From Acidimicrobiales bacterium (GTDB lineage Bacteria > Actinomycetota > Acidimicrobiia > Acidimicrobiales > CADCTF01): a stretch of 34,027 bases of DNA. This document shows, one piece after another, positions 3,726 to 34,027 of the stretch. The notes under the pieces were generated by a model that saw nothing but the letters and a program-made list of their open reading frames with translations, searched no databases and was not told the DNA's origin. The stretch covers positions 1 to 34,027 of the forward strand of contig JBKJLN010000350.1 in NCBI GenBank assembly GCA_046596935.1, read 5' to 3'. The translations under genes were made by a program, and so were the position numbers. Position 1 is the first letter of the stretch. Each line of letters begins with the position of its first letter.

Positions 3726-4087
3726 CCAAGGAAGAAGCTGTCATCCGTGATCCTGCCTATGCAGCGGCGGCGGGCAAGTGCTGGCTGGCTCGGATGATGG
3801 GCGGTCGGGTCGGCAACGTCGTGGCCGACCATCCGGGCGAGTGCTCATTCTGCGAGTTCGAGCCCGAGTACCTGATCGGTCGGATCGAAGAGTTCCTGCA
3901 CTGGGCAGGGCTCAACCCGATTGACGAGATCCGGATCGGCGAGCCCATCCTGCGTCCACTCCGCAACCAGGTCGAGTCATTCCAGATGCTCGGCGACGCC
4001 GAACAGAAGGCGCTCGTCCGCAAGGCCCAGGGCCACACGCCGCCGAAGACCGATGATGTCGAGAGGCCCTCGGACATCTGGCGGTAA
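3722..4087 (+). CDS. hypothetical protein (121 aa)
   Basis: ATG 3722 overlaps the upstream stop. No family recognised. Confidence 0.55.
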   Translation: MTKEEAVIRDPAYAAAAGKCWLARMMGGRVGNVVADHPGECSFCEFEPEYLIGRIEEFLHWAGLNPIDEIRIGEPILRPLRNQVESFQMLGDAEQKALVRKAQGHTPPKTDDVERPSDIWR

Positions 4088-4106
4088 TCGGGTGGAAGGC
4101 GTGACG

Positions 4107-4289
4107 ATGATCAAGTGGAAGGCGTGTGTTCAGTGTCGCGAACCCACGCTTCTCACTCTCTACTGTGATTCATGCTTCCGGGCCAACTTCAAGAAGATGA
4201 CACTGGAAGAAGAGCGGGACTGGTTGCTGAAGCGAATGACTGCCATCGCAGCCAAGTACACGATCAAGGGTCCAAGGAAGCAAAAATAG
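4107..4289 (+). CDS. small zinc-ribbon-like protein (60 aa)
   Basis: ATG 4107 preceded by GGTGGAAGG. CVQC...CDSC cysteine pairs. It is the tail of track ORF 3921..4289, whose upstream part is an Arg/Ser-rich off-frame artefact. Confidence 0.45.
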   Translation: MIKWKACVQCREPTLLTLYCDSCFRANFKKMTLEEERDWLLKRMTAIAAKYTIKGPRKQK

Positions 4290-4697
4290 ATGGTCCCAGT
4301 CAAGCGTCGGCTCCAACGGATCAGCGCGAGTTTCAACTCGAAAGCAAGGAAGTACCACGTTCGGGGAGTGGTAACGTGGGAGATGCTTGCCAGAGCGGGA
4401 AATCGCTGTTCCTACTGTCCCACCGAACTGACGCTTGACCAAGGAACCTGGGATCACGTCATCGCCTTCGGTGCTGGCGGGTCCAATGAGATCTCGAACA
4501 TCGTCCGGTGCTGCACGTCGTGCCAGCGTAGGAAGCACACAAAGAATCGAGAGGACTATGACGCCCACCGTGCGCTGCGTGTCACCTGTGCCCTGCCTGG
4601 GTGCGACGTGACTTACCAGCCACGGTGGGCTGAATATCAGAACGGAAGGGCACGCTATTGCTCGCACCAGCACGCGGGAGCGGCCCGGTGGCTGTGA
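4290..4697 (+). CDS. HNH endonuclease (classical HNH motif)
   Basis: CSYC...WDHVIAFGAGGSNEISNIVRCCTSCQRRK is a canonical Cys-box/His-Asn-His nuclease core. The ATG immediately follows the previous stop. Confidence 0.8.
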   Translation: MVPVKRRLQRISASFNSKARKYHVRGVVTWEMLARAGNRCSYCPTELTLDQGTWDHVIAFGAGGSNEISNIVRCCTSCQRRKHTKNREDYDAHRALRVTCALPGCDVTYQPRWAEYQNGRARYCSHQHAGAARWL

Positions 4698-12300: not shown

Positions 12301-13391
12301 TTGAACAGGACGTTGTAGTCCACGCCACCGATCTGCCAGTAGCGCGGAGCGGTCGTCTGGATCGAGGTGTTCTCGACTGGGAACGGATAGACCCGCGAAG
12401 CGCTGGTGACGTAGCCGCCCCACATCCGCACGCCAGCGATGTCGAGGGTCAGAGATCCGCCAGACGTGAAGCGATAGACATGACCGTCATCGCGGACCTT
12501 GAGCGTCGCGGTGCCGGTGGCTCCGTTGACGACGGCACTGAACCGAGCGGTGGCGATGTCCACGTCACCCGTGATGTCCACGCCATTGACTCGGATGACG
12601 ATGTTCGTGGTCGAGGCCGAGCCTGGACGGGTGGAGGCGGGCAACCCTGTGCCGTTGGCATAGACCGAACCTGCTCCGCCAGAAGCCACACCGATGGCAG
12701 TAATCGCGGTGGTGCTGGAGATGAACCGCAACGGGGCGTAGGCGGTCCCTGTGCCAGTGGCGGCTTGGGCAAGGACGACGATCTTCGAGTCGGCGGCAGA
12801 GCCGGTGCCTGCGGCCACACCGGGAGAGACACCAGCGGAGCCGCGCGGCGTACTAGCTGCACCCGCACCAGCCGCCACACTGGCCTTGGGCTGGATCGAT
12901 ACCGAGCCGCCCTGCGCAGCGCCAGTCCCAGCCGCAGCCTCACTTGCTGACTGGGACGACGTCGAGACGTTGGCTGCCGTGCCAGTCCCGGCCGCAACAG
13001 AAGCAGTTGCAGCCACAGCGTCGGTGGCATTCGCGGCTGATCCGGTTCCCAGAGCGGCTTCGGCGTTGGCTGACACCAAGGTGCCAGTGGCGGCCGTGGC
13101 GTCATTGGCTGCGCCTGTTCCACTGGCCACGCCGACCACAGGTGCAGTGCTGACTGAGGTACCACTGGCTGTTCCAGTACCCGTTGCCACGTCGGCTGCG
13201 GGAGATGCGTTGATCGCAGCGTTCTGTGCTGCACCTGTTCCCGTTGCCACGACGATCGCAGGTGAGACCTGGATCGAGGCGTTCTGGGCCGCCCCGGTCC
13301 CGGTGGCTACTCCAGCGCTGGCGCTGGTTCCTGCACTCGGAGTATCGAAGATCCCCGAGTCGAAGATGCCAGGGTCGAAGATCCCTGCCAT
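9324..13391 (-). CDS. large multi-domain tail fibre / minor tail protein (1355 aa)
   Basis: Single clean 1355-aa ORF downstream of the tape measure. Architecture: GIFD x3 N-terminus, about ten 20-aa Ala/Gly/Thr repeats, hub-like core, three tandem beta-sandwich-like modules, small C-terminal beta module. Confidence 0.8.
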   Translation of the reverse strand: MAGIFDPGIFDSGIFDTPSAGTSASAGVATGTGAAQNASIQVSPAIVVATGTGAAQNAAINASPAADVATGTGTASGTSVSTAPVVGVASGTGAANDATAATGTLVSANAEAALGTGSAANATDAVAATASVAAGTGTAANVSTSSQSASEAAAGTGAAQGGSVSIQPKASVAAGAGAASTPRGSAGVSPGVAAGTGSAADSKIVVLAQAATGTGTAYAPLRFISSTTAITAIGVASGGAGSVYANGTGLPASTRPGSASTTNIVIRVNGVDITGDVDIATARFSAVVNGATGTATLKVRDDGHVYRFTSGGSLTLDIAGVRMWGGYVTSASRVYPFPVENTSIQTTAPRYWQIGGVDYNVLFNKRIIFDPVNPTTKLSWDYAVGTYDNVIINDLFDNYLTIATDGLSRSGVTAVAVVTLDIKGITSGKGSLTKGRGQIASPGYTWKQAMDVIARATGAIYYIDPNKVLHYVDVDTPTASYVLSDQPAAGEKGYQNFQLLYNGTNLLNDMLVWGSALGSDRIVFARNQSTTSQTDHGRWQGGMVTSGLYQQASANLVAASFINGTPQNKRGGKDDAISLTCRVFEPAFNVGQKVTTEVNTFGYTDVLPVRRQEISFINPSKAVFDLTLSHDVDQNWSIYEELFARMPDYNIKIPDININIKPPVFDPPLGGCTDAICGITDTFTRTTTTDPGTSDSGKIWGSFSTVPKPYCNGTQLVVQYGKNALFDFGGPGSNEADFKFQFYMSAALKMVVVGGANGSTLVIQSWNGLVYIAHADAGPLVENSLTTTIFTSTWYNVRLQVDSTSIRVKLWQDGNPEPASWLLVITGTAVINSPNNISFSNTTNAVNSSQVNLLIDNLDVTGVNRCTEYRFDNFNRTTSGSLGTSSDGHAWSVATTLTSGSIACNGSEAVRTHSAAYPSYSRISYKVVGPGPWTAAGGWTMTGRFKLGAVTTGFAGVGITHYIVRTSIQAYLDMYANNTNGYIGTSGSTVSKTDWVAGVWYLVKWELLPQVGAVVGSIRMKLWKETDAEPATWATDDTWGGSLASGDEYWFDGSSSLVTNETWDYINFDYAGKPCYCSDTSTLLDDFNRSVSTPSWGTSSSGAAWTTGLSGNNVSHSVDGSSGVMVLQNNGYLEKILAATIGSRFIVEYDFLTTVLPTDYSQFFVRADSRTAGLFWNGSGASFARLDTTDVAFSISAGTIYHLKWEWLEGSTSRLKVWAGSTEPSSWTVTVAASVITPTDLLVRGDWAVFPSANGTYKLDNLRLTNTCSNNVFPASGSTFGYICEVPTRVTSTTYQLTSAISPGTTEVTVNGVLQRPGIAREYTAGTTNGLITFNSPVTSTDVVQVCYMANGPVI
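12725..13320 (-). repeat. about ten tandem 60-nt (20-aa) coding repeats, consensus VA(T/S)GTG(A/T/S)A...
   Basis: Examples of units: VATGTGAAQNASIQVSPAIV / VATGTGAAQNAAINASPAAD / VATGTGTASGTSVSTAPVVG / ... / ATGTGTAYAPLRF, read directly from the translation. Confidence 0.8.
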
Positions 13392-20700: not shown

Positions 20701-21854
20701 GGCTGGGTCTTCAGCTCCTCCATGAAGCTGGTCAGGAAGCCCTTGCCTGCCGACGCATTGACGACTTCGAGCGCCGCCCCAGCAATCGCCTCGGCACTGT
20801 CTTCGTTGAGACCGGACTTCTGGAGAGCCTTTGATCCAAGAGGACCGTGCTGCGTGATGTCGTCGTCGTTGTAGCGGTTGCCCTTGGGGTCCGCGACGTT
20901 GATCAGCTTCGCGGTCGAGACACCGAAGTGCTGGACTATGTCAGCCAGCTTGTCCATCTCGTTGCCGTCGGTCACATCGCGGTTGAACGCGGCTGAGGCT
21001 GGCGTACCGCGAGTGGCGCGTGCGATCTGCGAGTAGAGGCTGTTGATCGAGTCGCTCAGGCCCTCGGTGCCCTTGAATGTGGCATTGAGCGCATCGGTGA
21101 AGGATCTCTGGCCGTGAGGTGTCGGAGAACCCTGGGCCGCAGCCGCAGGGGTCTCACCGGATGGCCTGGCGGCCCCAACGCTTCCGACACCGATGTCCAA
21201 TCCCGAGAACGCTTCAAGAACTTGCTGGCGAATGCCCGCAATGTTGAGCTTGATGTCCACTTCGGGAACCGTGAGCTTCAGCTCGAACGGCTCAGCCAGA
21301 TCCTTTTCGACCTGGGGACGGACACTGCCAGTCTTGAATGTCAGGTTGGCGGCGGTCTTAGCCTCAGCTTTGGCGGCGGCGGGAGCAGCCTCCAGCCCGG
21401 CGATGCGAGCGAGCCGACCCTCGGTCCGGCGTGCTGGCGGGATCGGCTTGTCGAGGATGTGTGAGTAGTCGGGCTGACGACTCTCAGCCAGAGCCTTCTT
21501 GCGCTCGGCTGCACGGCGCGTGTTGATCGCGTCACGAACCCGCTTGTCCTCGGCTCGCTGAACCGCAGCAAGACGCTCGGTGCGCGACTGCTCATCCTGG
21601 AGCCTCTTGGCTTCCTGGGCCGCCTTGCCAGCGATCGGGTCGCGGACACGCTTGTTACCGCCCCCGGTGGGGGCAGGACCAGTCGCAGCAGCTTCAGTTG
21701 TCTCGGAGGCCCCGACGTTGACTTTCCAGTCACGTCCGACCAGCTCCTTGAGCCGGTTCTCGACACGTGTGAGGACAGCCTCAAGCTCGGTCGCGTTGCC
21801 GACAACGCCGACTTCCAGGGTTCCGAGGTCGTTGCCAGAGGACTCGTCAGTCAC
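14748..21854 (-). CDS. tail tape measure protein (2368 aa)
   Basis: Giant ORF immediately after the G/G-T chaperone genes (GTGA overlap). Long Ala/Glu/Lys/Arg/Gln-rich helical sequence. Gly/Ala-rich hydrophobic segment AFGAAAIGGAAAGGIGALQFGLGGALIAPIQAGVGAVV (nt ~16860-17040). Confidence 0.9.
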   Translation of the reverse strand: MTDESSGNDLGTLEVGVVGNATELEAVLTRVENRLKELVGRDWKVNVGASETTEAAATGPAPTGGGNKRVRDPIAGKAAQEAKRLQDEQSRTERLAAVQRAEDKRVRDAINTRRAAERKKALAESRQPDYSHILDKPIPPARRTEGRLARIAGLEAAPAAAKAEAKTAANLTFKTGSVRPQVEKDLAEPFELKLTVPEVDIKLNIAGIRQQVLEAFSGLDIGVGSVGAARPSGETPAAAAQGSPTPHGQRSFTDALNATFKGTEGLSDSINSLYSQIARATRGTPASAAFNRDVTDGNEMDKLADIVQHFGVSTAKLINVADPKGNRYNDDDITQHGPLGSKALQKSGLNEDSAEAIAGAALEVVNASAGKGFLTSFMEELKTQPARPIAAPAPAMEPTPVVVKETPKQAAVAARPVAETPAAETAAPAKIRKADDFIDYIKTLAGDIDPTKVPAVKDIAIPASLAKKGDPVYEEIQAAKIAAGRSQGTQSGLGDVQKVLDVATKRVFDGISATMVTPFENLAYELDPKNRKQRTGRLIPYNPAKGPMQEETEGSRVAGSTGPVPLGGRYVERANPSELLATTLKALFPGIEKQSNPDDKMSSVLNRIMAGSGRDAVQFRGAMPGDRGAGSFAPGSGQSTLRSQVESAAATERMLSQDPVIKKARRAVELATMNIEKRLGIVGGMAQRAIPEDDALGLKKVTAIDDVGTAIVARDELQRQLKEKEAAAIKRRAATIAEADRAFAEENKARVQTNPGGPVFQAAERKAVGKATRAKIDSGELPGEVTSRDAVVVDDDGTVRRGQKKSLKPIYFDKMEEIAKSDLPMRSMMTGEGGFTENAIREALKPVDEAMYDALNLVGKARNPKSLDKGEHFYIGAERKAVIDTLRERNRFAQEALDRSPDGIGGRVPKEKVGSPTVTGRHTPSGSIETKQQYARSQTDLGIEQQSIEARLIGEDAVAARNREIREAKSQALRRVQKQYGARDVEHPDAGAEGLDLLSFKDEPTRKAARATYNRSIAQLVPPIEARQKEETTGLRDQLAHIRAVTVAADRFLGSIANVGTSLIEDDQGKKKRVGGPNIEEQRRLAANRPLTNLPEGVSEDEVRLEAKQVLDFHAAEALNKSRNQAAKIPGEFVTYPGPFLSGERSQTVQLPDEVNRNTERETSSTGRRGGRTKAGRGSRSGDAGREFYNRAGGLTPPGEEPPVGEPPFSSFNRELARKYGRGEGGVGVGGPNGRGFQPGGAPIEVIVVGKFPLPVEIMGGGSAEGGTSSRGKRRKNIYDQDSVGGKWRTSVEWVPEGSGSATGGKKAPAPDKEMSAVDELRGKIRDRYPKGDQINFNKTPRVAEGSLKEETLATQGPLKFNRSVDALAAQREREEKATSLSGQSPLRVDRGLTARERQQAREERSAAAAAAAQLKIQPINTSQVALEKQRAREENQAKAAKNRLMQSGRRRSIDNFDIEAEFQDKEQDKLNPLRSQLNRANRLNPSRGFGASLTDALTGKLGGKALEKQQTALFRASSELSEMARLRMVRADTLGKGKVLLNEKFAIRNERPTATPERQAEIDVRGKAIAGELGVMHTRLKELNPSLDRSGKLFKKAIGEATEKGTVAKAFGAAAIGGAAAGGIGALQFGLGGALIAPIQAGVGAVVDATANAADRIGGFAGTTARVTAELSDQVAGGAGPTERVVAQREAQLGFSAASAERLSPVIDERVTTEAGNKLLQSRIEELNSAIKIRGENIDRVGDKNLTETTGGVFGAGGTAPTSELISTQFDLLQTRGQRDQTNVGLSDAALALSQNPFDQQAGQQAQDALKSLADSESTIKFFNDALKKGGEGVLEFSTKTEKVSPEDRAAQERALRSVNAQGLADKVRDERVVLTEGGKAVTDPTRLIDALKAINEPKPEAAQLLKAQEDSLRAQAQVRELQSGLNLGTLLPAGRGIASAQEGDLKLSGREDLGFTQENRQLTNELNQQAAANRKTAIDFVRSGPPGLRQGEKDDGRPILSDGTGLGADKAEQFAAALNAASGYANQIADIQLGVQTQQASLAAKQYSYQIGIAKRSLQDAKALVGDIAGGTNNLGAIERQNFQLQRQSQTLSLELSQRQINFQRAIANFQAPGLTSEEREARKQAAKIEADFAQKQLDIQKKLFALAGKGFNVSARRSVTDQELGLGLLTEGREITINTAKAEKKIAALSKKRDKELATVSAIFQEAVDKTNAIITTTGELAAATGKDMGELANSVIQAYAKVYRGLIKEIQGSLPADPDQSSMGGWNPGETHAEGFIGSVNGATSLGQYGVAGEAGGEAVAILRDPQKLTMNPYQSGGGGTQVITINVTGNTVRKDDDLNEIARKVENVLNRRGSQLGLRPLGG

Positions 21855-22760: not shown

Positions 22761-23171
22761 TTAGCTGAAGATGATCCACGCACCCTGAGCACGGAACTCG
22801 CCGGTCATCCGAACACCATCGGTATTGGACGCGGTGACGTTCGCGTCAATGAGGCCCGGACCGTGAGCGATCCACGCAGACGCCGTGGTGTCGTCGGCGT
22901 ACAGGTAGATCTCCTGGCTGTCCGACGTGGCCGCCGACAGAAGAAGGTCACCCGAGGTGTCCAGGAAGCCCGAGAAGGTGCCCTGGACGTTGGGGAGACC
23001 CGCGAGGTACGTCTTGTTGGTGTCACCGAAGACGGTGGCATCGACGTAGTCACGGTTCCGCTGGAGGGTCCACTCGGCCTTGGCAGCGACCTTGATGCCG
23101 CCGCCGCCCTTGACGCCGCCGAGGTAGATGGCCCCATTCTTTCCATGAATCTTTGTTCCCGAGTTTGCCAT
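22761..23171 (-). CDS. major tail (tube) protein
   Basis: 136 aa. Gly-rich beta protein (KIHGKNGAIYLGGVKGGGGIKVAAKAEWTLQ...FGDT...G.PNVQGTFSGFLD) in the canonical position upstream of the chaperones and tape measure, followed by the hairpin. Confidence 0.7.
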   Translation of the reverse strand: MANSGTKIHGKNGAIYLGGVKGGGGIKVAAKAEWTLQRNRDYVDATVFGDTNKTYLAGLPNVQGTFSGFLDTSGDLLLSAATSDSQEIYLYADDTTASAWIAHGPGLIDANVTASNTDGVRMTGEFRAQGAWIIFS

Positions 23172-23709
23172 GGTTTCTTGGTGTATCCTTCAGATCCATA
23201 CGGCCATAGGAGGCGACATGCCCAAGGGCGTCTATCACCGATCCCTGACCCCCGATCAGCGGTTCGATCGACGGATCGCGCAGTCGGGTGACTGCCGCGT
23301 CTGGACCGGCCCGGTGGCCAGTTCGGGCTACGGCAACTTCTGGTTCGAGGGCAAGTACATCGGTGCCCACGTCTACGCCTGGATCAGGGGCCACGGGCCG
23401 CTGAAGCCAGGTGAAGCCGTGCGGCACGGTCCTTGTCACAATCGGCTCTGTTGCCGCGAGGATCACCTCACGACTGGAACCAAGGGCGACAACAACCGGG
23501 ACCGCCAGCGAGACGGCACGCAGACCCGAGGGTCAGCCCACCACTCGTCGGTGTTGACCGAGGAGCTAATCCTCGAAGCACAACGACGACGCGCTCTCGG
23601 CGTGCCGTTCGCCAGGATCGCCAGAGACCTTGGAGTCAATGCCTCCACGCTCTATGACGCTGTCACTCACCGCAAGGGATCGTGGCTGCACGTCAAGGAC
23701 GATGCCTAG
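23172..23709 (+). mobile_element. putative free-standing homing-endonuclease insertion (antisense to the late operon)
   Basis: A 538-nt segment between the tail terminator-like gene and the major tail gene. It contains only an opposite-strand HNH gene paralogous to 2010..2579 and 26619..27089. Confidence 0.4.
23218..23709 (+). CDS. HNH homing endonuclease (HNH_3-type plus HTH), paralog 2 of 3
   Basis: ATG 23218 preceded by AGGAGG. Motifs CRVWTGPV.SSGYG.F....KYIGAHVYAW...GP...G..V.HGPCHNRLCC...HL..GT...N..D, then VLTEELI...G.PFARIARDLGVNASTLYDAV. The TAG stop overlaps the convergent stop of 23706..24125. Confidence 0.8.
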   Translation: MPKGVYHRSLTPDQRFDRRIAQSGDCRVWTGPVASSGYGNFWFEGKYIGAHVYAWIRGHGPLKPGEAVRHGPCHNRLCCREDHLTTGTKGDNNRDRQRDGTQTRGSAHHSSVLTEELILEAQRRRALGVPFARIARDLGVNASTLYDAVTHRKGSWLHVKDDA

Positions 23710-25727: not shown

Positions 25728-26593
25728 GCCATGGACCTCACGACGTAGGGAGCGAGCATCGAGGCGGCCGGGCCAACGATCCCTGACGAGAGGAAGTTGT
25801 TCTTGCCCTGGCGGAGTTCGACCTCTTCGACCTTGATCCCGGACAGGCCCGACAGACCGGAGCTGGCGATCGACGCCGCACCCACGACATCGGTGACGAG
25901 CATGGCGGTTGCACGTGCAACCGCATTCGGGATCTTGTAGTGGTAGGTGAGCGTGTACTGCTCACCCGGAGTCGTCGGCGTGCTGAGAGCAACCGTGCCC
26001 TCGGTTCGATTGACGGTGTAGTTCGCACCAGCCACGGTTGTCCCGTTCTTCTTGAGGACGATGTTGGCATCGGTGAAGAACTGGTTGTCGGCGTAGAGCG
26101 TCGAGCCTGAAGCTGTGACCAGCGACTCGTCGGTCGCGGTGAAGTCATAGCCGTAGGTGTAGGTGAGCTTGGCGACAGGCTGCCGCAACCCGATGTTCGG
26201 CAAGATCCCGTAGCCGAAGACACCGAAGGTCGTCAGCGCCAGATCGACCGGCTCCACCCAGCTCTCGGTGGAATGAACGTACAGCGAGTTCGCCTGGTTG
26301 AAGAGGATGCTCTGGTTGTTGGTGATCTCGATCTTCAGCGAGGCGACGGTCTTGATCGGACGGTTGAACGGCCACACCCGGTTGGAAGGCGAACGCTTGA
26401 TGTTGCCCGTATCCCAGACGTGCTGTTCATCGGTGACGGAACCGCCGCGAAAGTCGTAACCCGCAGGCACGCAGCAGTAGGCGTTGACCAGCGCGCTGGC
26501 GTTGGCGATGTGATTCGCCAGGACACCATCGCTCGGCAGGCTCGCGCCAGTTCCCATCGTTCGATATCGGGCTGGTGTGAGGTACTGCGGCAT
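25724..26593 (-). CDS. head-tail connector/adaptor-like protein with an inserted beta module, tentative
   Basis: 289 aa. ATG 26593 preceded by GGAGG. The N-terminus YLTPARYRTMGTG....DGVLANHIANASALVNAY resembles gp6/gp15-type adaptors. First gene after the capsid gene. Confidence 0.5.
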   Translation of the reverse strand: MPQYLTPARYRTMGTGASLPSDGVLANHIANASALVNAYCCVPAGYDFRGGSVTDEQHVWDTGNIKRSPSNRVWPFNRPIKTVASLKIEITNNQSILFNQANSLYVHSTESWVEPVDLALTTFGVFGYGILPNIGLRQPVAKLTYTYGYDFTATDESLVTASGSTLYADNQFFTDANIVLKKNGTTVAGANYTVNRTEGTVALSTPTTPGEQYTLTYHYKIPNAVARATAMLVTDVVGAASIASSGLSGLSGIKVEEVELRQGKNNFLSSGIVGPAASMLAPYVVRSMA

Positions 26594-27089
26594 CGGGCCT
26601 CCGAGTTACCATGTGGGGATGAAGACTCTCGCCGAACGCTTCTGGTCGAAGGTTCATCAAGGCCCCACTGGCTGCTGGCTATGGACAGCCTCAGTTGATG
26701 GACGGGGCTATGGAAAGATCCAGACCGGCACGTTTGCCGCACCGAAGTACGAACAAGCGCATCGAGTTGCCTGGAGGCTCTTCCACGGTGAGGAAGCCGT
26801 CGCGAACGTCCTGCATCGCTGCGACACGAGACGATGTTGCCGACCGAACCATCTATTCGATGGATCGATCCAGGACAACCACGACGACATGTGGGCCAAG
26901 GGTCGAGGAAAGCACGGAACCGACAAGTCAGGAGCGAAGCTCGATCCCGATCGGGTCCGTGCCATCCGACGATCCGCGTCAGCCGGTGAGAGCCTGTCCT
27001 CGTTGAGTCGTCAGTACGGAGTTTCCGTTCCGACGATCTTCAAGGTGGTTCACCGGCTGAGTTGGACCCGCGTTCAGGATCAAGCCTGA
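26594..27089 (+). mobile_element. putative free-standing homing-endonuclease insertion (antisense to the late operon)
   Basis: A 496-nt segment between the capsid and connector genes. It contains only an opposite-strand HNH gene paralogous to 2010..2579 and 23218..23709. Confidence 0.4.
26619..27089 (+). CDS. HNH homing endonuclease (HNH_3-type plus HTH), paralog 3 of 3
   Basis: ATG 26619. Motifs FWSKV....GCWLWT.S.DGRGYGKI......AHRVAWRL.HG......VLHRCD.RRCC.P.HLF.G...DN..D, then KLDPDRVRAIR.....GESLSSLSRQYGVSVPTIFKVV....W. The 3' end overlaps the capsid gene 3' end by 10 nt (convergent). Confidence 0.8.
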   Translation: MKTLAERFWSKVHQGPTGCWLWTASVDGRGYGKIQTGTFAAPKYEQAHRVAWRLFHGEEAVANVLHRCDTRRCCRPNHLFDGSIQDNHDDMWAKGRGKHGTDKSGAKLDPDRVRAIRRSASAGESLSSLSRQYGVSVPTIFKVVHRLSWTRVQDQA

Positions 27090-28375
27090 CGGACGCGGAC
27101 CTTGTTGCTGAACGTCGGAGCCTTGACAGCAAGGCCCCACATCCCGAAGATGATGAACAGGTGGGTGAGCTGACCCGAGACACCCATCGGGATGTCGAGC
27201 ACAGTCGGACCGTCGCTGCCCAGGTACGGGATGCTGATGCTGTTCTCGTCGAGGAGGTAGATGTCCGACACGGTGTTACCCGAGTAGGTGTACGTCCCGA
27301 CCGAGTCACCAGCGACGACGAAGAGCGGGGTGCCGCCGAACACGGTGTTGATCGTGTTCACCTGCACGCCGAGACCGACGTTGGTGTAGTTGTCCATGTA
27401 GCGGACGTTCTTGTCCTGCTGGACGTCGATCTGGCCCTTGGTGACCGGAGCGAGGTACGCCACATCGATGCGGCCAGCGAGCTGCATGGTCGTGATCGAG
27501 GCGGTGTTGATCGCGGCGCGCATGTCCTCGGGGGTGGCAGCGGTCGGATTCACGTTCACGGCGTTGGCCGTGTTGAGAATCTTGCGCAGGCCGTCGAACG
27601 AGTTCGCGTCGTACAGCCCGTCCTCGGTGGAGGCGGTGCCGGACGAGACGGTCGCGTTGCCCTGGAAGATGGTCTTCTGCATCTTGTGGGCGATGGCACG
27701 GAGACCGGCCTGCATCTCAAGCTGCTCCGGGTTGAACCCTGCGCCGCCCGCGAGGGTGGCGTACTGGTTCTTGAGCGAGACGCCGCGCCGAGTGGCGAGG
27801 ACCGCGATCGGGGTTGTCGCCCGCTCGTAGACCGCCGTGTCATCGGTGACAGTTCCCAGCTCGGTCATGAACTGGGCGTCGCCGAAGCTCGTGCTCCGGT
27901 TGTAGGCGTGGACCAGGCCGTTCGCAGGCTCCTTGCGGAACCGATCCCAGGCCGGGAACTCGCGGATGTACAGCTCGTACAGGAGCGGCTCCAGATCCTG
28001 TCGGATCAGGGCAGCGCCACCAGCCGTGTCGAGAGCCTTCTGGAGGAACGGATCGCCCGAGATTGCAGCTTCGATCGATCGGCCACCACCCGAAGCCATC
28101 CAGACATCGACGGGGATGCCCTGGTTCTGCTTGCGAGCCTGTGAGCTGAACATCGCGCCGAGCTGAGGCGTGCTCATCTTGTGGAGACGCTCGCGCAGCT
28201 CGACCTGGTCGGCTGCGGAGAGGAAGCGACGAGGAGCAAGCTCAGGCCCATCGCCCGCGCCAACCTTCGCGACAGCCGGGTTCGGCGTGTCGTTCTGGCT
28301 GTCGAGAGCGGGACCGAGTTCGCCCAGCGCCTCTTTGATCTTCTTGAGGCTTTCCGGAGAAAGCTCGAAACCCAC
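27080..28375 (-). CDS. major capsid protein (HK97 fold)
   Basis: GTG 28375 lies 4 nt after the protease stop, with GGAAAGGGA upstream. ...DTAGGAALIRQDLEPLLYELYIREFPAWDRF...GLVHAYNR... and overall length/composition fit HK97-type capsid proteins. Directly follows the protease. Confidence 0.85.
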   Translation of the reverse strand: MGFELSPESLKKIKEALGELGPALDSQNDTPNPAVAKVGAGDGPELAPRRFLSAADQVELRERLHKMSTPQLGAMFSSQARKQNQGIPVDVWMASGGGRSIEAAISGDPFLQKALDTAGGAALIRQDLEPLLYELYIREFPAWDRFRKEPANGLVHAYNRSTSFGDAQFMTELGTVTDDTAVYERATTPIAVLATRRGVSLKNQYATLAGGAGFNPEQLEMQAGLRAIAHKMQKTIFQGNATVSSGTASTEDGLYDANSFDGLRKILNTANAVNVNPTAATPEDMRAAINTASITTMQLAGRIDVAYLAPVTKGQIDVQQDKNVRYMDNYTNVGLGVQVNTINTVFGGTPLFVVAGDSVGTYTYSGNTVSDIYLLDENSISIPYLGSDGPTVLDIPMGVSGQLTHLFIIFGMWGLAVKAPTFSNKVRVRQA

Positions 28376-28379
28376 GGTA

Positions 28380-29558
28380 TTAGTCCCTTTCCAGCATCTT
28401 GAGGAAGCCTTCGTCATAGATCCCGGCGAACCGGGACTGGAAGGTCTTCACGGGACCCGTGAACGCGGTCTTGCGTCCAAGCGGGGTCTTGGCGATGGTG
28501 GCGATGATCTCGGCTGCGTCGGTCAGCATCGCGTCCTTCTCAAGCACCTTGGCCAGAGCCAGATCACGCTCACCCTGGGCCGTATCCCGCTCTGCCACGG
28601 CCTGTTCAAGGCTGGCGATGAGCGAGAGAATCAAGTCCTTGGTGGTCGGATCGTTCTCTGAGGCGGTATGAGCGACGGCTGCTGCCTTGGCGGCTTCGAG
28701 GTCCACGGGACTCGTGGGTTCCTCGGCCTTGATGGCCTCGTTCGTTGCCGGGGCGTCGGCGGCGGTGTCCCCTTCGGGAGCCGCGTTGGCCAGGTTGTCA
28801 GTTGGAGCGGCTGGTGCCTCGTCCGTCGGCTCGCTCGTGGCCTCGGAAGTCTCGGGCGCGTCCTTCGGCTTCAGGTCAGCCAGGGCTGCCTTGGCCTTCT
28901 CGTCATCGGTGAGGCCCGGCTCAAGCTCGGGCTCATCCTCTTCTCCGTGGACGCTCTTGATCGCCTTGACGGCGTTCTGCACCCAGGAGCGAGGGTTGGC
29001 GGGGATGCCCACGATGGACGCTTCGAGAAGGTCAACCTTCTTGATGGTCATGCCACCGAAGAAGCCCTTCTCCTTGTCCTTGAACTCCCACTCGCTGATC
29101 ATCGCGCCGATGGACACGCCGAGCTTGACGCCCTGGTCCTTCAGCGCGGCGTAGGTGTTGACGGCGCGAGGGTTGGCTTCGTTCACGACCATGTCGAGGT
29201 CGAAGTCCCAAACGGCCTTGCCCTCGGCGTTCGCGGAGCGGCTGACCGTTCGCGTGTCCACCGTGCTGCCGAAGACGTCCTCGGGGACCGCGTACTTGTG
29301 GTTCAGGAAGATCGTCATGTTCTTGATCTTGGCCTGCGAGGCCATGTCCCGAACGCAGTCGTCGGTCATGGTGTCGCCGTGCAGATCCTCGACGGACGAG
29401 GAAGCGGTGCAACTCAGGAGCTTGCGGCCGTTGTCCTCGTACGCCTTCAGCGCACCAGTGAAGATCTTGAACTTGGGATCGTTGCCCTCTTCACCGCCCA
29501 GCGTGCTTCGGAGGGTTGCGACGGGCAGAGCGACGGGCAGAGCGATTGGATCTGACAT
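28380..29558 (-). CDS. prohead (capsid maturation) protease fused to an acidic scaffold-like C-terminal region
   Basis: ATG 29558 preceded by GGAGG. HK97-type protease motifs SSSVEDLHGDTMT, FLNHKY, GVSIGAM and LLEASIVGIPANPRSWV. These are followed by an about 70-aa Pro/Glu/Ala/Thr-rich linker and a helical tail. Confidence 0.85.
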   Translation of the reverse strand: MSDPIALPVALPVATLRSTLGGEEGNDPKFKIFTGALKAYEDNGRKLLSCTASSSVEDLHGDTMTDDCVRDMASQAKIKNMTIFLNHKYAVPEDVFGSTVDTRTVSRSANAEGKAVWDFDLDMVVNEANPRAVNTYAALKDQGVKLGVSIGAMISEWEFKDKEKGFFGGMTIKKVDLLEASIVGIPANPRSWVQNAVKAIKSVHGEEDEPELEPGLTDDEKAKAALADLKPKDAPETSEATSEPTDEAPAAPTDNLANAAPEGDTAADAPATNEAIKAEEPTSPVDLEAAKAAAVAHTASENDPTTKDLILSLIASLEQAVAERDTAQGERDLALAKVLEKDAMLTDAAEIIATIAKTPLGRKTAFTGPVKTFQSRFAGIYDEGFLKMLERD

Positions 29559-30819
29559 GGGGGCCTCCAGGACTTCCAGCGGGTTGCTGGGCCAGTCCAT
29601 CGATGAGAGAGGAGAACTCGGCAGCGGCGGTGTCCCACGAGAAGCTCGTGAGGACGTGGTTGCGGCCTGCTTCTCCAAGGTCTCGCCGGAGATCCCGGTC
29701 GAGATAGAGGGTCTCGATTGCTTTGGTGAACTCGGACACGTTCGGGAGCCACTGGTCGTGACCTGCGAACACCGCGATCAGTCGTTCTGGCTCAATGAGC
29801 AGGCCGCCAGGCCCGACCACTTCTGTGATCGATGAACAGTTCTGGGCCACGATCGGAATAGCTGTCGCGGCGGCCTCGGCGAGAGTCAGGCCGAAGCCCT
29901 CGCCCCACGATGTGGACACGAACAGGTCGGCGGCGTTGTAGAGGATCGCGAGATCCTGCTCCTGCCAGCCTTGAACCGTGTTGTGCTTGCCGGGGAAGGT
30001 GAACCGGCTGGCGGTCTCCTCATCACGGCTGAAGAGTTCCGGCAGCTCCATCCCGTCGCCCTGGCCCTTGCAATGGAACCAGGCGTGCATGTCCGGGTAT
30101 TTCTTCATCAGCGGAACCAGAGCCCGCCAGGTGTCGGCGTAGTTCTTGCGATCGGAGTTGCGATCGACCCGCAGGACCAGGAACCCGTCCGGGTCCACGC
30201 CAACTGCCGCCTTGGCTTCCCGCTTGGACGTGACCTTGAGGCCAGTCGAAGTGGTCAGCGGAGCGTCTGGTGCGGCCGGGCGGTAGATCTTGTCATCGAC
30301 GCCGTGGTAGATCATCGGTGCGGACTTCAGGATCTTCTGACCGAACCGGCTCATCGCGACCGGATGGAATGATGGGCCGGTGCCACCCTCCATGGGTTCG
30401 AGCTGGTCCCGGAAGACCGTGGGCAGCTTCTGCCATGTCTCTGGCTGGTTGATGCCGTCGATCGGCATGTAGGCGATGATCGGCCGGAAGCGTGCCAGGA
30501 TCAGATCCGTGTCGTGCTTGTTGCGGAAGATCAGCTTCATCAGCGCGAACGGGTCCTGGATCATGACCACGACATCGGGCATGACTTCGCCCAGCATCTC
30601 GACGTAGCGAGCGGTGCCGTAGACGTCTCGCGGATCGTTCCGGTTGGCGCGATACAGCTTCATCGGTGTCGGCCACTTGCCCGCGTCGCCATCAAAGTTG
30701 ATGGCCAGGCAGTGGACGTCATGGCCGTACTTGGTGACGAGCCGGTCTCCGATGGAGTGAGTCACTCGCCCGAAGCCCGTGTGGGCTCCTGCGTCAGCGA
30801 TGAAGAGAACCCGAGCCAT
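29491..30819 (-). CDS. GT4-family (GT-B fold) glycosyltransferase
   Basis: 442 aa. ARVLFIADAGAHTGFGRV N-terminus and the C-terminal LYNAADLFVSTSWGEGFGLTLAEAAATAIPIVAQ (E-x7-E type) signature. ATG preceded by GGAGG. The 3' tail overlaps the protease start by 68 nt. Confidence 0.85.
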   Translation of the reverse strand: MARVLFIADAGAHTGFGRVTHSIGDRLVTKYGHDVHCLAINFDGDAGKWPTPMKLYRANRNDPRDVYGTARYVEMLGEVMPDVVVMIQDPFALMKLIFRNKHDTDLILARFRPIIAYMPIDGINQPETWQKLPTVFRDQLEPMEGGTGPSFHPVAMSRFGQKILKSAPMIYHGVDDKIYRPAAPDAPLTTSTGLKVTSKREAKAAVGVDPDGFLVLRVDRNSDRKNYADTWRALVPLMKKYPDMHAWFHCKGQGDGMELPELFSRDEETASRFTFPGKHNTVQGWQEQDLAILYNAADLFVSTSWGEGFGLTLAEAAATAIPIVAQNCSSITEVVGPGGLLIEPERLIAVFAGHDQWLPNVSEFTKAIETLYLDRDLRRDLGEAGRNHVLTSFSWDTAAAEFSSLIDGLAQQPAGSPGGPHVRSNRSARRSARRNPPKHAGR

Positions 30820-30834
30820 AAGCCTCCGGGGCAG

Positions 30835-30866
30835 ACAGAAGCCCCGCTATCCAGAGCGGGGCTTCT
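30835..30866 (-). other. perfect 12-bp stem-loop 15 nt upstream of the GT4 start
   Basis: CAGAAGCCCCGC-TCTGGATA-GCGGGGCTTCTG, with a second 7-bp hairpin (ACCCTGG/CCAGGGT) at about 30873-30896. No U-tract. Possible roles: leader structure, processing site or I-shaped terminator. Confidence 0.4.
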
Positions 30867-30969
30867 GTGAGGGCAACCCTGGGAATCGCGCCAGGGTCGC
30901 GGAAGTTACGTTGTGATCACGTCGCCATTCGACGTTTGGAGCCTCTGAAGCTCCGTTGAAGCTGGAGCG

Positions 30970-30999
30970 ACTCTACTTCATCGATGAAGGGCTTTGCAA
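30970..30999 (-). promoter_or_regulatory. sigma70-like promoter candidate with a palindrome in the spacer
   Basis: Minus strand reads TTGCAA - 18 nt - TAGAGT. The spacer contains the perfect 14-nt palindrome CTTCATCGATGAAG (30976-30989). It lies directly after the stop of the upstream gene, about 150 nt before the GT4 start. Confidence 0.35.
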
Positions 31000-31004
31000 G
31001 ACGC

Positions 31005-31247
31005 CTAGCCCTTCTTGTTGGGCTCGATGTCGCCTCGCTGGAGGTCGGCGGGAAGCGTTGCCGAGCGATCCGGCGACTCCGGGACCGTCTTGGTCTCGGT
31101 GGAAGGCGTGGATGCGGTGGCATCCGTGGTCGTGATCACGTCGCCGTCAGGCGCTGTCGTGGTGGTGCTCTGCTCGTTGCCCATGTCGGCTCTCCTGCTG
31201 GGTACACGGTCATGGCCGTGCAACCCCTTGATGATGCGGCCTGTCAT
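31005..31247 (-). CDS. small Thr/Ser-rich acidic, probably disordered protein (80 aa, or 60 aa from ATG 31185)
   Basis: Sequence ...MGNEQSTTTTAPDGDVITTTDATASTPSTETKTVPESPDRSATLPADLQRGDIEPNKKG. The internal ATG 31185 has a better AGGAGA site, so the start is uncertain. Confidence 0.5.
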   Translation of the reverse strand: MTGRIIKGLHGHDRVPSRRADMGNEQSTTTTAPDGDVITTTDATASTPSTETKTVPESPDRSATLPADLQRGDIEPNKKG

Positions 31248-31256
31248 GTTGCTTCC

Positions 31257-31454
31257 CTATTCCTTCGCGGGCGGGAAGCAATACTCGCAGAGATCGTCTT
31301 GATCGCTGACATCATCGAGGATCGCGGCGTTCGCGTCGTCGAGGTTGCATCGCTCGTCCACGCGCCAGGAACCCTTGATCTTGATCTGCTCGTGGATCTT
31401 GCCGGAACCAGTGCGGACGTAGCGGGTCTGGGTGTAGACGAGCGACTCGTTCAT
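31257..31454 (-). CDS. hypothetical protein (65 aa)
   Basis: ATG 31454 lies 2 nt after the upstream TAG. Product MNESLVYTQTRYVRTGSGKIHEQIKIKGSWRVDERCNLDD...CEYCFPPAKE. The longer track ORF start (31526) would overlap the preceding gene. Confidence 0.5.
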   Translation of the reverse strand: MNESLVYTQTRYVRTGSGKIHEQIKIKGSWRVDERCNLDDANAAILDDVSDQDDLCEYCFPPAKE

Positions 31455-31456
31455 CT

Positions 31457-31756
31457 CTAGGCCACCACAACACTGGCAGTGGCAACCTGGGCGTCGGTGG
31501 TGGCGTTGCGAAGGGTCACAGTCCACGTACCCGAGGCCGGGAACGTGACGTCATCCCACTGGTGCTTCTCGGCCTGGCTCGGGGCGAACTTGTGGCTGAT
31601 CAGATCGTCCTGACCGGCCAGGCGACCACGGATGCGATAGGTGATCTCGGTGCCGTCGGCGGCGTTCGCGGGTGTGCCCGTGACGTAGATGTGGCAGGTT
31701 GACTTGACTGCCGTGATGGCCCCGGACGCCGGGACAATGGTGAGAGCTGCGGCCAT
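31457..31756 (-). CDS. small beta-rich (Ig-like?) protein (99 aa)
   Basis: ATG preceded by TAGGAGGAAG. Alternating beta-strand-like pattern (ITAVKSTCHIYVTGTPA...TEITYRIRG...GTWTVTLRNATT...ATASVVVA). Confidence 0.6.
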   Translation of the reverse strand: MAAALTIVPASGAITAVKSTCHIYVTGTPANAADGTEITYRIRGRLAGQDDLISHKFAPSQAEKHQWDDVTFPASGTWTVTLRNATTDAQVATASVVVA

Positions 31757-31765
31757 TGCTTCCTC

Positions 31766-32455
31766 CTACGTCCCAGGCTTCAATCGCGCCCAGGCGTACT
31801 GATTGAGCCGTCCGATCGAAAGTCGGACTGCGCTCGGGTCACCGCCCTTGTTGAACGGTGTCTCGTAGATCTCCTGGCCAGGATTACCACCCCACTTGGA
31901 GTGGTAGTAGCTCAGGTTCTGCGGGAATGTGGTCCCGTTCTGGCTCATATACAGCGGGTGACCACGGATGGTCGCGCTGCCTTCATGTTCGAGATGCCCT
32001 TCGACTTCCACGAGAGGCACGCCCACGAGCTTGGCCCGCCAAGTCATGTCGTTGTCCTCACAGTAGCCAGGATGAAGGTTCCCATCGAAGAAGCCGGTCT
32101 TCTCCAGCGCCGCCTGGTTGATGGCAAAGGCGGCGAAGCCAAGCAGCATCGCGATCTTTGCTTCTTCATCATCCATGACGGAACTGAGACGAGCAAGGTC
32201 CCCAGGTCCGAATGCCACGTCGTCGTTGACGATCAGCCACCACGGTGCTCGCGGCGTCAACTGGAACACGAGGTTCCAGCTCGCTCCAACGCCGATGTTG
32301 TGCGGCAGGTGAACGACATGGGCCGGGAAGTCTTCAGGGACTCGCCCTCCGTTGTCGATGACCAGAAGCGTCTGCACCTCCTCGTCGATCGAACCGATCA
32401 TCCGAGTCAGCAGATCCGTTCGGTACAGCGTCGGTGCGGCGAGGACTGGGATCAA
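31766..32455 (-). CDS. GT2-like (GT-A fold) glycosyltransferase
   Basis: TTG 32455 overlaps the upstream stop (TTGA). LIPVLAAPTLYR...LLVIDNGG...NIGVGASWN...LIVNDDV...GFAAFAI...GFFD....GYCEDNDMTWR matches rhamnosyltransferase-like GT2 patterns. The track ORF start at 32668 is an upstream off-gene extension. Confidence 0.75.
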   Translation of the reverse strand: MIPVLAAPTLYRTDLLTRMIGSIDEEVQTLLVIDNGGRVPEDFPAHVVHLPHNIGVGASWNLVFQLTPRAPWWLIVNDDVAFGPGDLARLSSVMDDEEAKIAMLLGFAAFAINQAALEKTGFFDGNLHPGYCEDNDMTWRAKLVGVPLVEVEGHLEHEGSATIRGHPLYMSQNGTTFPQNLSYYHSKWGGNPGQEIYETPFNKGGDPSAVRLSIGRLNQYAWARLKPGT

Positions 32456-33066
32456 CGGGGATTGGGGAAGTAGTAGTGGACGATCCGGTCGAGGAAGGCG
32501 AACTTCACTCCGTCCGCGATCATTCTCGTCCACAGATCGGCGTCTTCGGGCAGACCTCGCTCGATGCAAGTTGGGTCGTAGCGATAGCCCATGCCGTTGC
32601 GATAGACATACGAGCCATCGGTGAAGTTCATGGCTGATGGAGGCCATCGGCCGTAGACCTGAGCCCACGGCGTGATCGCCTTGCCGTAGACGAAGTCAGC
32701 TCCCGTCTTGACGGCTTCGGCCAGCAGAGCTTCGATCGTGAACGGAGCCCACGAGTCATCGTCTGCGAGGACTGCGATCCAGTCACCCTTGGCCGTATCG
32801 AGGCCATGGTTCAGAGCGTTGAGTCCGAGCACGCCCCACTTGTCATTCGGGTTCTCGGGGTAGACCTGATGCGGCAGGTTCGTGAATCGAACTCGTGGGT
32901 CCGGGAAGTCGGCCAGAGCATCGACTGTCTCCTGCTCGGTCCCATCACCCACGATGTGGATGTCCAGCTCGTCGTGAGTCTGCTCCAGGATCGTTGGAAC
33001 ACAGCGGTCGAGAAGGAGACGGGTCCTGTTGAAAGTCGGGACGATGACCGAGACAAGACCAGTCAC
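32452..33066 (-). CDS. GT2-family (GT-A fold) glycosyltransferase
   Basis: GTG 33066 preceded by TAAGGAGAA. VSVIVPTFNR hallmark and a DDD (DxD) motif in IAVLADDDSW. 204 aa with no TM segment. Confidence 0.85.
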   Translation of the reverse strand: MTGLVSVIVPTFNRTRLLLDRCVPTILEQTHDELDIHIVGDGTEQETVDALADFPDPRVRFTNLPHQVYPENPNDKWGVLGLNALNHGLDTAKGDWIAVLADDDSWAPFTIEALLAEAVKTGADFVYGKAITPWAQVYGRWPPSAMNFTDGSYVYRNGMGYRYDPTCIERGLPEDADLWTRMIADGVKFAFLDRIVHYYFPNPR

Positions 33067-33074
33067 GATTCTCC

Positions 33075-34027
33075 TTACTTCAGGAGGAGATCAGGATCGA
33101 TCTCCATCAACAGGATGGCCCGGTTCGCTTTGGTGACCGGATCAAGATCCAGGACTGACCACTCGTTGGGTACATCATCATCGATGAAGCCCATCGTTCG
33201 CCAGCCACTTTGCACCTCTTGCGTTGCAGTCGTCGCAACTCGCCAGCGGACGTCGAGGATCGCTTCGACGACCGTGAGGACTGACCACTCCACATGGAGG
33301 GTGATCTCGACCGGCCGCAGCGGCGGACGCAGCCTTCCTTGTCCACCACCACCGAATGTCGGAGTTGCCCCGGTGGCAATGAGGATGGTCGTGTCGTATG
33401 CCGACCCTGTTCCGCTTGCGACCTGGGCATTGACCGCAACATGAGTGGCGACGTTGGCGGCTGAGCCGGACCCGGTTGCGGCTCCAGGGTTGGCGGCCCC
33501 GGTTCCTTGAGTGACGGCCGTGGCGTTGTAAGCCGATCCGGTCCCGAGCGCTCCGGCGTTCGGCGCGACGCTGGCACTGGGATTGGCAAAGTTGCCAGAG
33601 CCAGTGGCAACTCCAGAAACCGCATCGATGGCAGGAACGCCAGTCGCGTTCCCAGCCGCTCCTGTCCCAGCCGAGACGTCGGCATTGACCGTGACCGCGA
33701 GACTCGGACCATACGCCGTCCCGGTCCCTGTCGCCGTGTCGGCGGGAGCGTCGTCGGTCGTCGAGATCGTCGTGTTTCCGGCCGAGCCGGTGCCTGACCC
33801 GGCACTCGCATTCGGGGCGATGCTTGCGCTGGCACTGAAGGAGGTTCCGGTTCCAGTTGCCGTCCCAGCGTTGACGTTGGTTGCGGCACTGGTCGTGACA
33901 CTGGCGTTGTACGCAGCGCCGGTTCCAGTGGCGACCCCAGCGGTGGCAGCAACCGATCCCGCGAGGGGGCTCGCTGATCCAGTACCGCTGCTCGTTCCAG
34001 CCGAGGTCGCCAGGCTGATGGTCGCAC
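33075..34027 (-). CDS. partial (C-terminal 316 aa) Ala/Gly/Thr-repeat fibre-like protein; continues beyond the window
   Basis: Hand translation of the frame ending at TAA 33077-33075 is open all the way to the window edge (951 nt in phase from 34025). It gives ...VATGTGAAYNASVTTSAATNVNAGTATGTGTSFSAS...GTGSAYDTTILIATG...EITLHVEWSVLTVVEAILDVRW...LLK. The track reports only its last 72 aa because the frame has no ATG/GTG/TTG upstream. Confidence 0.65.
   Translation of the reverse strand, partial: ATISLATSAGTSSGTGSASPLAGSVAATAGVATGTGAAYNASVTTSAATNVNAGTATGTGTSFSASASIAPNASAGSGTGSAGNTTISTTDDAPADTATGTGTAYGPSLAVTVNADVSAGTGAAGNATGVPAIDAVSGVATGSGNFANPSASVAPNAGALGTGSAYNATAVTQGTGAANPGAATGSGSAANVATHVAVNAQVASGTGSAYDTTILIATGATPTFGGGGQGRLRPPLRPVEITLHVEWSVLTVVEAILDVRWRVATTATQEVQSGWRTMGFIDDDVPNEWSVLDLDPVTKANRAILLMEIDPDLLLK
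33390..34027 (-). repeat. tandem ~20-aa (A/G)TG(T/S)G-type coding repeats, same type as 12725..13320
   Basis: At least ten G(T/S)G(T/S/A)(A/G) cores at roughly 20-aa spacing in the hand translation. Confidence 0.7.

Follow-up and report, generated by a model that had tools for sequence, protein, structure and literature searches.

A three-glycosyltransferase cassette in the head-morphogenesis operon of an uncultured siphophage: a candidate system for virion glycosylation

What do glycosyltransferases modify when their genes lie among those that build the head of a phage? The question is raised by contig JBKJLN010000350.1, recovered with an Acidimicrobiales bacterium and analysed here as a complete contig of 34,027 bp with ~62% G+C (the window). 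Upstream of its genes for the prohead protease and the major capsid protein (MCP) lies a cassette with one family-4 glycosyltransferase (GT4) and two enzymes of the family-2 type (GT2a and GT2b). With moderate confidence, we read this cassette as a system for the late cytoplasmic glycosylation of virion proteins. Within the head-morphogenesis operon of this uncultured high-GC siphophage it would be a sub-module for glycosylation: three soluble, nucleotide-sugar-dependent (Leloir) glycosyltransferases (GTs), made late in the cytoplasm alongside the prohead protease and the capsid protein, would use host nucleotide sugars to decorate the surface proteins of the virion with a short glycan, either ahead of assembly or in the course of it. 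GT4 would be the invariant core enzyme and the first gene of a GT4-protease-capsid unit. Glycan diversity would come from a variable part made up of GT2a and GT2b, the latter probably in partnership with an Ig-like protein of 99 amino acids (aa), p99; in relatives this part also comprises a methyltransferase, acyltransferase, cytidylyltransferase or epimerase.

A cytoplasmic glycan on a component of the assembling head is suggested by the fixed position of GT4, its overlap with the protease gene, the conservation of catalytic residues, the solubility of the enzymes, a toolkit of tailoring enzymes without export functions, and the apparent independent capture of such enzymes by unrelated phages. 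That the acceptor is a protein, that it is carried on the virion, and which linkage and which order of enzyme action apply, are matters that we infer from these features.

Position of the cassette in the head module

The fixed position of GT4 is evident from a search of IMG/VR that was seeded with the MCP and not with an enzyme. In each of the loci that retained enough upstream DNA to be evaluated (13/13), GT4 lies directly 5' of the protease and MCP genes, at MCP identities of 51-72%. The same GT4-protease-MCP order is found in four distinct contexts reached with GT4 or GT2b as the seed (loci L006, L007, L028 and L030); L008 and L009 are near-duplicates of L007, and L010 is a 98%-identical fragment with the same order. 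Because the order is constant in both the MCP-seeded and the enzyme-seeded relatives, GT4 is regarded as a core head-module gene of the clade. Metagenomes hold 839 GT4 homologues at E<=1e-10, of which the best 120 display 52-98% identity, many of them lying on contigs of 30-70 kb that derive from soil, farmland and other sources.

The window itself displays a siphophage-type layout, with early genes to the left on the plus strand and the lysis, tail, head-tail and head genes on the minus strand. Every gene of the cassette region (27080-34027) is on the minus strand. The features of this region, and one repeat-bearing segment of the tail module, are as follows.

33075..34027, minus strand: 3' part (316 codons) of a repeat protein that runs off the contig end; TAA stop at 33075
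32452..33066, minus strand: GT2a, 204 aa, by PF00535
31766..32455, minus strand: GT2b, 229 aa, by phrog_29879 and a GT-A model
31457..31756, minus strand: p99, 99 aa, an Ig-like beta-sandwich by structure model
31257..31454, minus strand: 65-aa protein with Cys residues, perhaps a Zn ribbon, with conserved counterparts in L006, L010 and L030
31005..31247, minus strand: small Thr/Pro/acidic protein, disordered-looking by composition; likely start M22 at 31184
30820..31004, minus strand: conserved intergenic leader, 185 nt, kept in L010, L006 and L030
29491..30819, minus strand: GT4, 442 aa, by PF00534, PF13692 and phrog_2170
28380..29558, minus strand: S78 prohead serine protease with a scaffold-like C-terminal fusion part and a Pro/Thr/Glu linker, by PF04586 (6.6e-8) and phrog_80
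27080..28375, minus strand: MCP of the SU10_MCP / phrog_752 type, by PHROG match
12702..13334, minus strand: N-terminal ~210 residues, with a 20-aa GTG repeat, of a 1355-aa tail protein (whole gene 9324-13391)

A sequence-only reading of the window had listed these cassette genes upstream of the protease-scaffold and capsid genes; all of them are present on the minus strand, at or near the positions it gave, and in that relation to the head genes. The packing of the operon is tight. The TAA stop of the repeat protein is followed by 8 nt containing an AAGGAG ribosome-binding site and then by the GTG start of GT2a, the TGA stop of GT2a and the TTG start of GT2b overlap as TTGA (translational coupling), and the protease start (GGAGG-N5-ATG at 29558) overlaps the 3' end of GT4 by 68 nt. 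The portal gene, which the sequence-only reading had proposed to place by synteny, is outside the window, and in L006 and L028 it is located 9-10 kb upstream of GT4.

The slot between portal and GT4 is a variable module in the relatives. It holds Ser/Thr-rich repeat proteins of 520-1424 aa with 19-32% Ser plus Thr, whose repeat units differ greatly between phages, together with a Rib/Ig-like protein of ~106 aa (encoded ahead of GT4 in most relatives), p99 and a Gly-rich protein; one slot protein matches phrog_1645, 'virion structural protein', at 1e-77. An attempt to treat p99 and the ~106-aa Rib/Ig-like protein as one family gave an hhalign probability of 0.4%, and they are kept as separate families. 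The sugar-related enzymes of the slot are distributed as follows.

GT2a: the window, L028 and L030
GT2b: seven loci
another GT2-like family: L007, L013, L020 and L023
class-I S-adenosylmethionine (SAM) methyltransferase: L028
hexapeptide acyltransferase: L030
cytidylyltransferase: L006 and L012
NAD-dependent epimerase/dehydratase: L007

The sequence-only reading had also pointed to a lack of flippase, polymerase and sugar-nucleotide genes. This holds for the window, where a Pfam scan of 30 open reading frames (ORFs) revealed none of them, but not for the relatives in full, since these carry the epimerase/dehydratase, cytidylyltransferase, acyltransferase and methyltransferase just listed. No flippase, polymerase, Wzx/Wzy/GtrA-type or membrane protein was called in any related locus.

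Cassettes of the same kind are found in two sequenced phages. In Synechococcus phage S-CBS4 the order is portal, hypothetical protein, GT4, GT2b and SAM methyltransferase, followed further on by protease and MCP (cassette gp014-016), whereas in Pontimonas phage phiPsal1 it is MCP, GT1, SAM methyltransferase, GT2b and neck (cassette gp010-012). Both resemble the window in having homologous enzymes (GT4 24-27% identical over the full length, GT2b 32-34%) and in placing the cassette within the head module, between portal and protease or between MCP and neck, respectively. They differ from it in their unrelated capsid proteins and hosts, in the presence of a methyltransferase that the window does not have, and in having no GT2a, p99 or large repeat protein beside the cassette. 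We found no functional studies of either cassette in the literature. Two further IMG/VR contigs, L004 and L005, carry a GT4 of 33-34% identity just before adaptor and neck genes. The distribution suggests that the GT4 and GT2b pair has been captured independently by the head or neck modules of unrelated phages. The organisation had been called unusual; it is instead the rule in a large uncultured clade, and its presence in S-CBS4, phiPsal1, L004 and L005 as well makes it a recurrent but unrecognised pattern.

The three enzymes, the GT4 leader and p99

By its sequence, GT4 is a retaining GT-B glycosyltransferase of CAZy family GT4. It matches PF00534 with 55.5 bits (cutoff 26.4) and PF13692 with 56.8 bits (cutoff 27), both at ~1e-15, and phrog_2170 over its full length (residues 9-406, 2e-30). 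The EX7E motif reads EGFGLTLAE (E307-GFGLTLA-E315), and residues E307, E315, H172, G173, R217 and K225 are at least 97% conserved among 121 homologues, which suggests an active enzyme under purifying selection rather than a decayed structural remnant. The best sequence match among solved structures is B736L of chlorovirus NY-2A (PDB 3oy2, 7e-10), ahead of MshA-type enzymes, and this similarity is confined to the C-terminal nucleotide-sugar domain (residues 202-411). There is also a match to PF20706, 'GT4 in conflict systems', at 9e-10.

In the leader that precedes GT4, a promoter-like TTGCAA-N18-TAGAGT element carries the palindrome CTTCATCGATGAAG in its spacer. Three predicted hairpins come after this element, the last of them a 12-bp GC-rich terminator-like stem, which is followed by the GGAGG-ATG of GT4. 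Compensatory change is seen in 9/44 predicted pairs over three independent sequences. A metagenome scan for the promoter/leader motif returned the contig of L030 itself and seven unrelated chance matches only. The window has the leader in common with L010, L006 and L030 only. The promoter and hairpin structure is suggestive, and the leader could be a late control element of the antitermination type. If the element is real, GT4, protease and MCP would form a separately regulated late unit whose first product is a glycosyltransferase.

GT2a, judged by sequence, is an ordinary inverting GT-A glycosyltransferase of family 2, as evident from its PF00535 match (6e-21, 75.5 bits against a cutoff of 23.3) and from the VSVIVPTFNR and DDD motifs visible in the translation. 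Its best matches among solved structures are AvpGT (9jma), chondroitin synthase, SpsA and GalT1 (5hea), and it matches the GtrB-like phrog_841 weakly (1.2e-4). The homologues in L028 and L030 occupy the same position at 48-51% identity.

GT2b is more divergent. Its match to Pfam Glycos_transf_2 (18.8 bits) is below the cutoff of 23.3, although some homologues carry a precomputed PF00535 match, and it matches phrog_29879, 'galactosyl transferase', at 1.9e-38. An AlphaFold2 (AF2) model built from an alignment of 57 homologues has a GT-A fold with a mean predicted local confidence (pLDDT) of 95.5. Foldseek with this model gave 244 PDB matches at E<=1e-3 (E=1e-7), the 50 top-ranked of which are all glycosyltransferases; the top TM-scores (0.65-0.67) belong to polypeptide GalNAc-transferase T2 (ppGalNAc-T2), and the other matches include TarS, TarP, GlfT2, chondroitin synthases and a peptide S-glycosyltransferase. 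Residues D34-N35, N77-D79 and E133-D134-x-D136, which belong to DXD-type acidic motifs reading DNG, NDD and ED.D, are invariant or nearly so in the 57 homologues. On the strength of the model, GT2b is clearly a divergent GT-A glycosyltransferase. The typing of the enzymes as one GT2, one GT2-like and one GT4 in the sequence-only reading is thus borne out, for GT2a and GT4 by Pfam and for GT2b by PHROG, AF2 and Foldseek.

No window of 19 residues reaches a Kyte-Doolittle value of 1.6 in GT2a, GT2b or GT4, and the claim that the three enzymes are without transmembrane (TM) segments therefore stands. As an argument against targets in the cell wall, however, it fails: TarS and TarP are soluble cytoplasmic enzymes that glycosylate teichoic acid, and both are among the Foldseek matches of GT2b. 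The virion-linked role proposed by the sequence-only reading thus loses its TM argument, whereas it is strengthened by the comparative data, namely the status of GT4 as a core head gene and its overlap with the protease gene.

The model of p99 is a seven-strand beta-sandwich (pLDDT 85.7), and fold searches with it gave generic Ig, FN3, MG and Big-1 matches only. In the relatives p99 always adjoins a GT2-type gene. In L030 (JACCDR012343717.1, 5268-6284) GT2b and p99 form a single ORF of 338 aa, the sole such case among 120 GT2b homologues, which could be a real domain fusion or an artefact of assembly or read-through. If real, the fusion would tie p99 functionally to GT2b. The 65-aa protein and the small Thr-rich protein gave no match to a Pfam or PHROG family.

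Candidate acceptors and neighbouring genes

The likeliest acceptors in this phage would be the 20-aa GTG repeats of the fibre-like protein of the head module and of the N-terminus of the 1355-aa tail protein. In the head-module protein about ten 20-aa Ala/Gly/Ser/Thr units, each with GTG at its centre, are followed by a C-terminal domain of ~90 aa; the protein has no Pfam or PHROG match, and full-length homologues measure 1001 aa in L012 and at least 816 aa in L030. Within the window, the GTG repeat is confined to these two fibre-like proteins of the head and tail modules, and for this reason it is the best acceptor candidate here. The GTG-repeat regions are degenerate at the DNA level, where no tandem repeat was detected in them. 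The 1355-aa tail protein (9324-13391, minus strand) also opens with three (G)IFD repeats, which correspond to a 15-nt DNA tandem repeat at 13345-13385. N-glycosylation of the GTG repeats was considered and rejected, as NxS/T occurs 5 times against 3.8 expected from composition-matched shuffles and the motif is not kept in the repeats of L030.

The small Thr-rich protein (31005-31247) is a weaker candidate by its sequence, its Thr-richness being absent in the L030 homologue. The Pro/Thr/Glu linker of the protease-scaffold is likewise a weaker acceptor, because in S78-type protease-scaffold systems the linker is normally removed from mature heads. A 448-aa tail protein (13401-14747, minus strand) consists of two similar halves and gives a sub-threshold match to BclA_C, a C1q/TNF-like domain (6.6e-5, 23 bits against a cutoff of 38). 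As BclA is a heavily glycosylated exosporium fibre, this protein may be another acceptor or a receptor-binding protein.

The capsid protein is the alternative acceptor, since head proteins are the sole class found next to the GT4 and GT2b pair in every lineage. The MCP ends in ...APTFSNKVRVRQA and the tail-tube protein in ...AQGAWIIFS. An invariant 'SSGTA' segment of the MCP (residues ~244-248 of the 431-aa form), inside 'FQGNATVSSGTAS', is a candidate glycosylation site if it is surface-exposed.

Several neighbouring genes deserve mention. A tape-measure-like ORF at 14748-21854 (minus strand) encodes 2368 aa, and its counterparts in relatives 2264-2692 aa, which predicts an exceptionally long tail for the clade. 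HNH endonuclease genes with Pfam support are found on the plus strand at 26577-27089, 2010-2579 and 4290-4697, and further candidates, recognised by eye only, at 23170-23709 and 1733-2035 (plus strand). The gene at 26577-27089 and the candidate at 23170-23709 lie on the opposite strand within the structural operon, after the capsid and tail-tube genes, respectively; in S-CBS4 an HNH gene likewise adjoins the GT cassette. Rfam and tRNA scans of the window were empty, exact look-ups of the window GT4 and of protein P0142 returned no record of either, and the window RusA used as a query for the early region of relatives found nothing.

Rival targets, known systems and implications

Several points weigh against glycosylation of the virion. 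For every member of the clade a virion glycan is a prediction from its genes, and the window is only part of a genome, so the scan for DNA-hypermodification genes covers that part. A distant MCP relative (44% identity) in an Anaerolinea metagenome-assembled genome, the single match of an MCP-profile scan of GTDB genomes, has the protease and no GT4 within the 10 kb on each side, which indicates that GT4 is dispensable for this capsid fold. The fold of GT2b leaves its acceptor class unfixed, because the matches span enzymes of teichoic acid, lipid-linked sugars, polysaccharides and proteins. Ser/Thr-rich C-terminal tails, the acceptor feature of mycobacteriophages, are absent from the MCP and the tail tube; tblastn of GT2a, GT2b and GT4 against 50,697 phage records gave no mycobacteriophage match; and neither the window DNA nor the MCP matches INPHARED, leaving the phage without a cultured close relative. 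Finally, lipids or polymers associated with the membrane are common acceptors of soluble GT4 and GT2 enzymes.

For this last reason a host envelope glycopolymer (teichoic acid, arabinogalactan, lipoglycan or a lipid-linked precursor), modified from the cytoplasmic side in the manner of TarM, TarS and TarP, has to be considered as the target, with superinfection block or prevention of progeny re-adsorption to debris as the effect. We rate it as unlikely. The resemblance of GT2a and GT2b in fold and sequence to TarS, TarP, AvpGT (9jma/9jn3), GlfT2 and chondroitin synthase agrees with it, as do the weak GtrB-like match of GT2a and the cytidylyltransferase of L006 and L012, which resembles a donor enzyme of the cytidine diphosphate (CDP)-glycerol type. 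The locus, however, is part of a late head operon in which it overlaps the protease gene, and it accompanies the capsid genes universally, where a moron or lysogenic-conversion locus would differ. No integrase or repressor was seen in the window, no locus offers a flippase, polymerase or TM protein, and a wall polymer modified so late would have little chance of arriving at the surface in time. A role in phage-host conflict, in which the enzymes would act on a defence protein of the host, on a signalling nucleotide or a small molecule, or on a transient assembly factor like the scaffold that stays out of the virion, appears improbable. The PF20706 match of GT4 and the Pro/Thr/Glu linker of the protease-scaffold would suit it, but that match covers the C-terminal nucleotide-sugar domain only and is weaker than those to the generic GT1/GT4 models. 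Counter-defence genes are also usually early and variable, whereas GT4 keeps its place at the start of the capsid operon in relatives with 51-72% MCP identity, and a set of several glycan-tailoring enzymes suits a structured glycan better than a single blocking modification.

Glycosylation of the phage DNA (at hydroxymethyl-pyrimidines or other modified bases) as protection against restriction is the least probable of the targets considered. Phage GT-A and GT-B enzymes do hypermodify DNA with diverse sugars, in clusters that include epimerase and cytidylyltransferase partners, and the known DNA glycosyltransferases have C5-methyltransferase/5mYOX or ThyS genes as neighbours (Pyle et al., bioRxiv 10.1101/2023.12.21.572611). 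No C5-methyltransferase, 5mYOX or ThyS gene is present in the window or beside the cassette in ~20 related loci, and the adjacent methyltransferases are small class-I enzymes of the Methyltransf_11/23/24 type, not the C5-cytosine type. GT4 is a canonical EX7E enzyme, while the DNA GT-B enzymes of Pyle et al. resemble T4 beta-GT, and no beta-GT is found among its solved-structure matches; the cassette also accompanies head genes and not replication genes. Also in favour of DNA as the target, besides the incomplete genome, is the relative L028, which carries a QueD (PTPS) gene and a gene with a ParB_N domain just upstream of the terminase (3421-4521). Going by its sequence, this QueD may point to DNA modification of the 7-deazaguanine type in some members of the clade.

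Glycosylation of virion proteins, the reading preferred here, can be compared with known systems. To our knowledge, glycosylation of phage virions has so far been shown only in a few mycobacteriophages, whose glycans shield the particles from antibodies. O-glycosylation of the virions of Che8, Corndog and Myrna was described by Freeman et al. (2023, Cell Host Microbe 31:1216). As related in papers that cite this work, the glycans are borne on C-terminal extensions of capsid and tail-tube subunits, and the GT genes lie near the right genome end in cluster F1, while cluster O has three tandem genes after an O-methyltransferase. Both systems have soluble phage-encoded GTs (up to three in tandem), presumed virion targets, late cytoplasmic synthesis and high-GC hosts, and the O-methyltransferase of cluster O parallels the methyltransferase in relatives of the window. 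The known mycobacteriophage acceptors are C-terminal tails, of which there are none here, and no sequence similarity between the enzymes is detectable; in the window, moreover, the head operon counts a GT among its fixed core genes. These differences place the window outside the mycobacteriophage system, and the cassette would be a mechanistically different variant of the virion-glycosylation idea.

Chloroviruses (PBCV-1, NY-2A) encode soluble GT-A and GT-B enzymes that work independently of the endoplasmic reticulum and have been proposed to glycosylate structural proteins; one of these enzymes, B736L, is the top solved-structure sequence match of GT4. They are, however, giant viruses of eukaryotes, only the C-terminal nucleotide-sugar domain is similar, and we know of no established acceptor for B736L itself. 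Serine-rich-repeat adhesins provide a parallel in principle, in that a soluble GT4 (GtfA/GtfB) primes the Ser/Thr-rich repeats of a fibrillar surface protein in the cytoplasm and GT-A enzymes of the GT2 or GT8 type, such as GalT1, extend them. The appearance of GalT1 among the matches of GT2a may be taken as a lead only; unlike the window, the adhesin system is bacterial and coupled to secretion, GtfA is not among the GT4 matches, and there is no GtfB-like partner. TarP, TarS and TarM share with the cassette the feature of phage-borne GT2-type enzymes, TarS and TarP being structural neighbours of GT2b. The Tar and Gtr systems differ in being lysogenic-conversion or host genes that act on wall polymers, and Gtr needs the GtrA flippase and membrane GtrB/GtrC, for which the window ORFs gave no Pfam match.

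A broader proposal may be put forward tentatively, and we regard it as rather doubtful. On this view, the heads of an extensive group of uncultured high-GC siphophages could not be completed without glycosylation, with GT4 priming sugars on capsid-associated proteins. A hypervariable complement of swappable tailoring enzymes, Ig-like adaptors (p99 and, in relatives, the conserved Rib/Ig-like protein of ~106 aa) and repeat proteins serving as 'glyco-fibres' would then give every phage a mucin-like glycan coat of its own. Such a coat would correspond to the virus-encoded glycosylation of capsids in giant algal viruses, and its mechanism would be distinct from the C-terminal-tail system of mycobacteriophages.

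If glycosylation of virion proteins by the cassette is true, sugar-coated particles would be widespread among soil and aquatic phages, as suggested by the 839 GT4 homologues and by the cyanophage and marine actinophage cassettes, and both the enzymes and the acceptor sites would differ from those of the known mycobacteriophage system. The question can be tested on a published isolate, S-CBS4, if it is still available. The cassettes would offer a source of soluble protein-glycosylating enzymes for engineering, and the finding would change the way in which capsid surfaces, host recognition, particle stability and the immunogenicity of phages are read.

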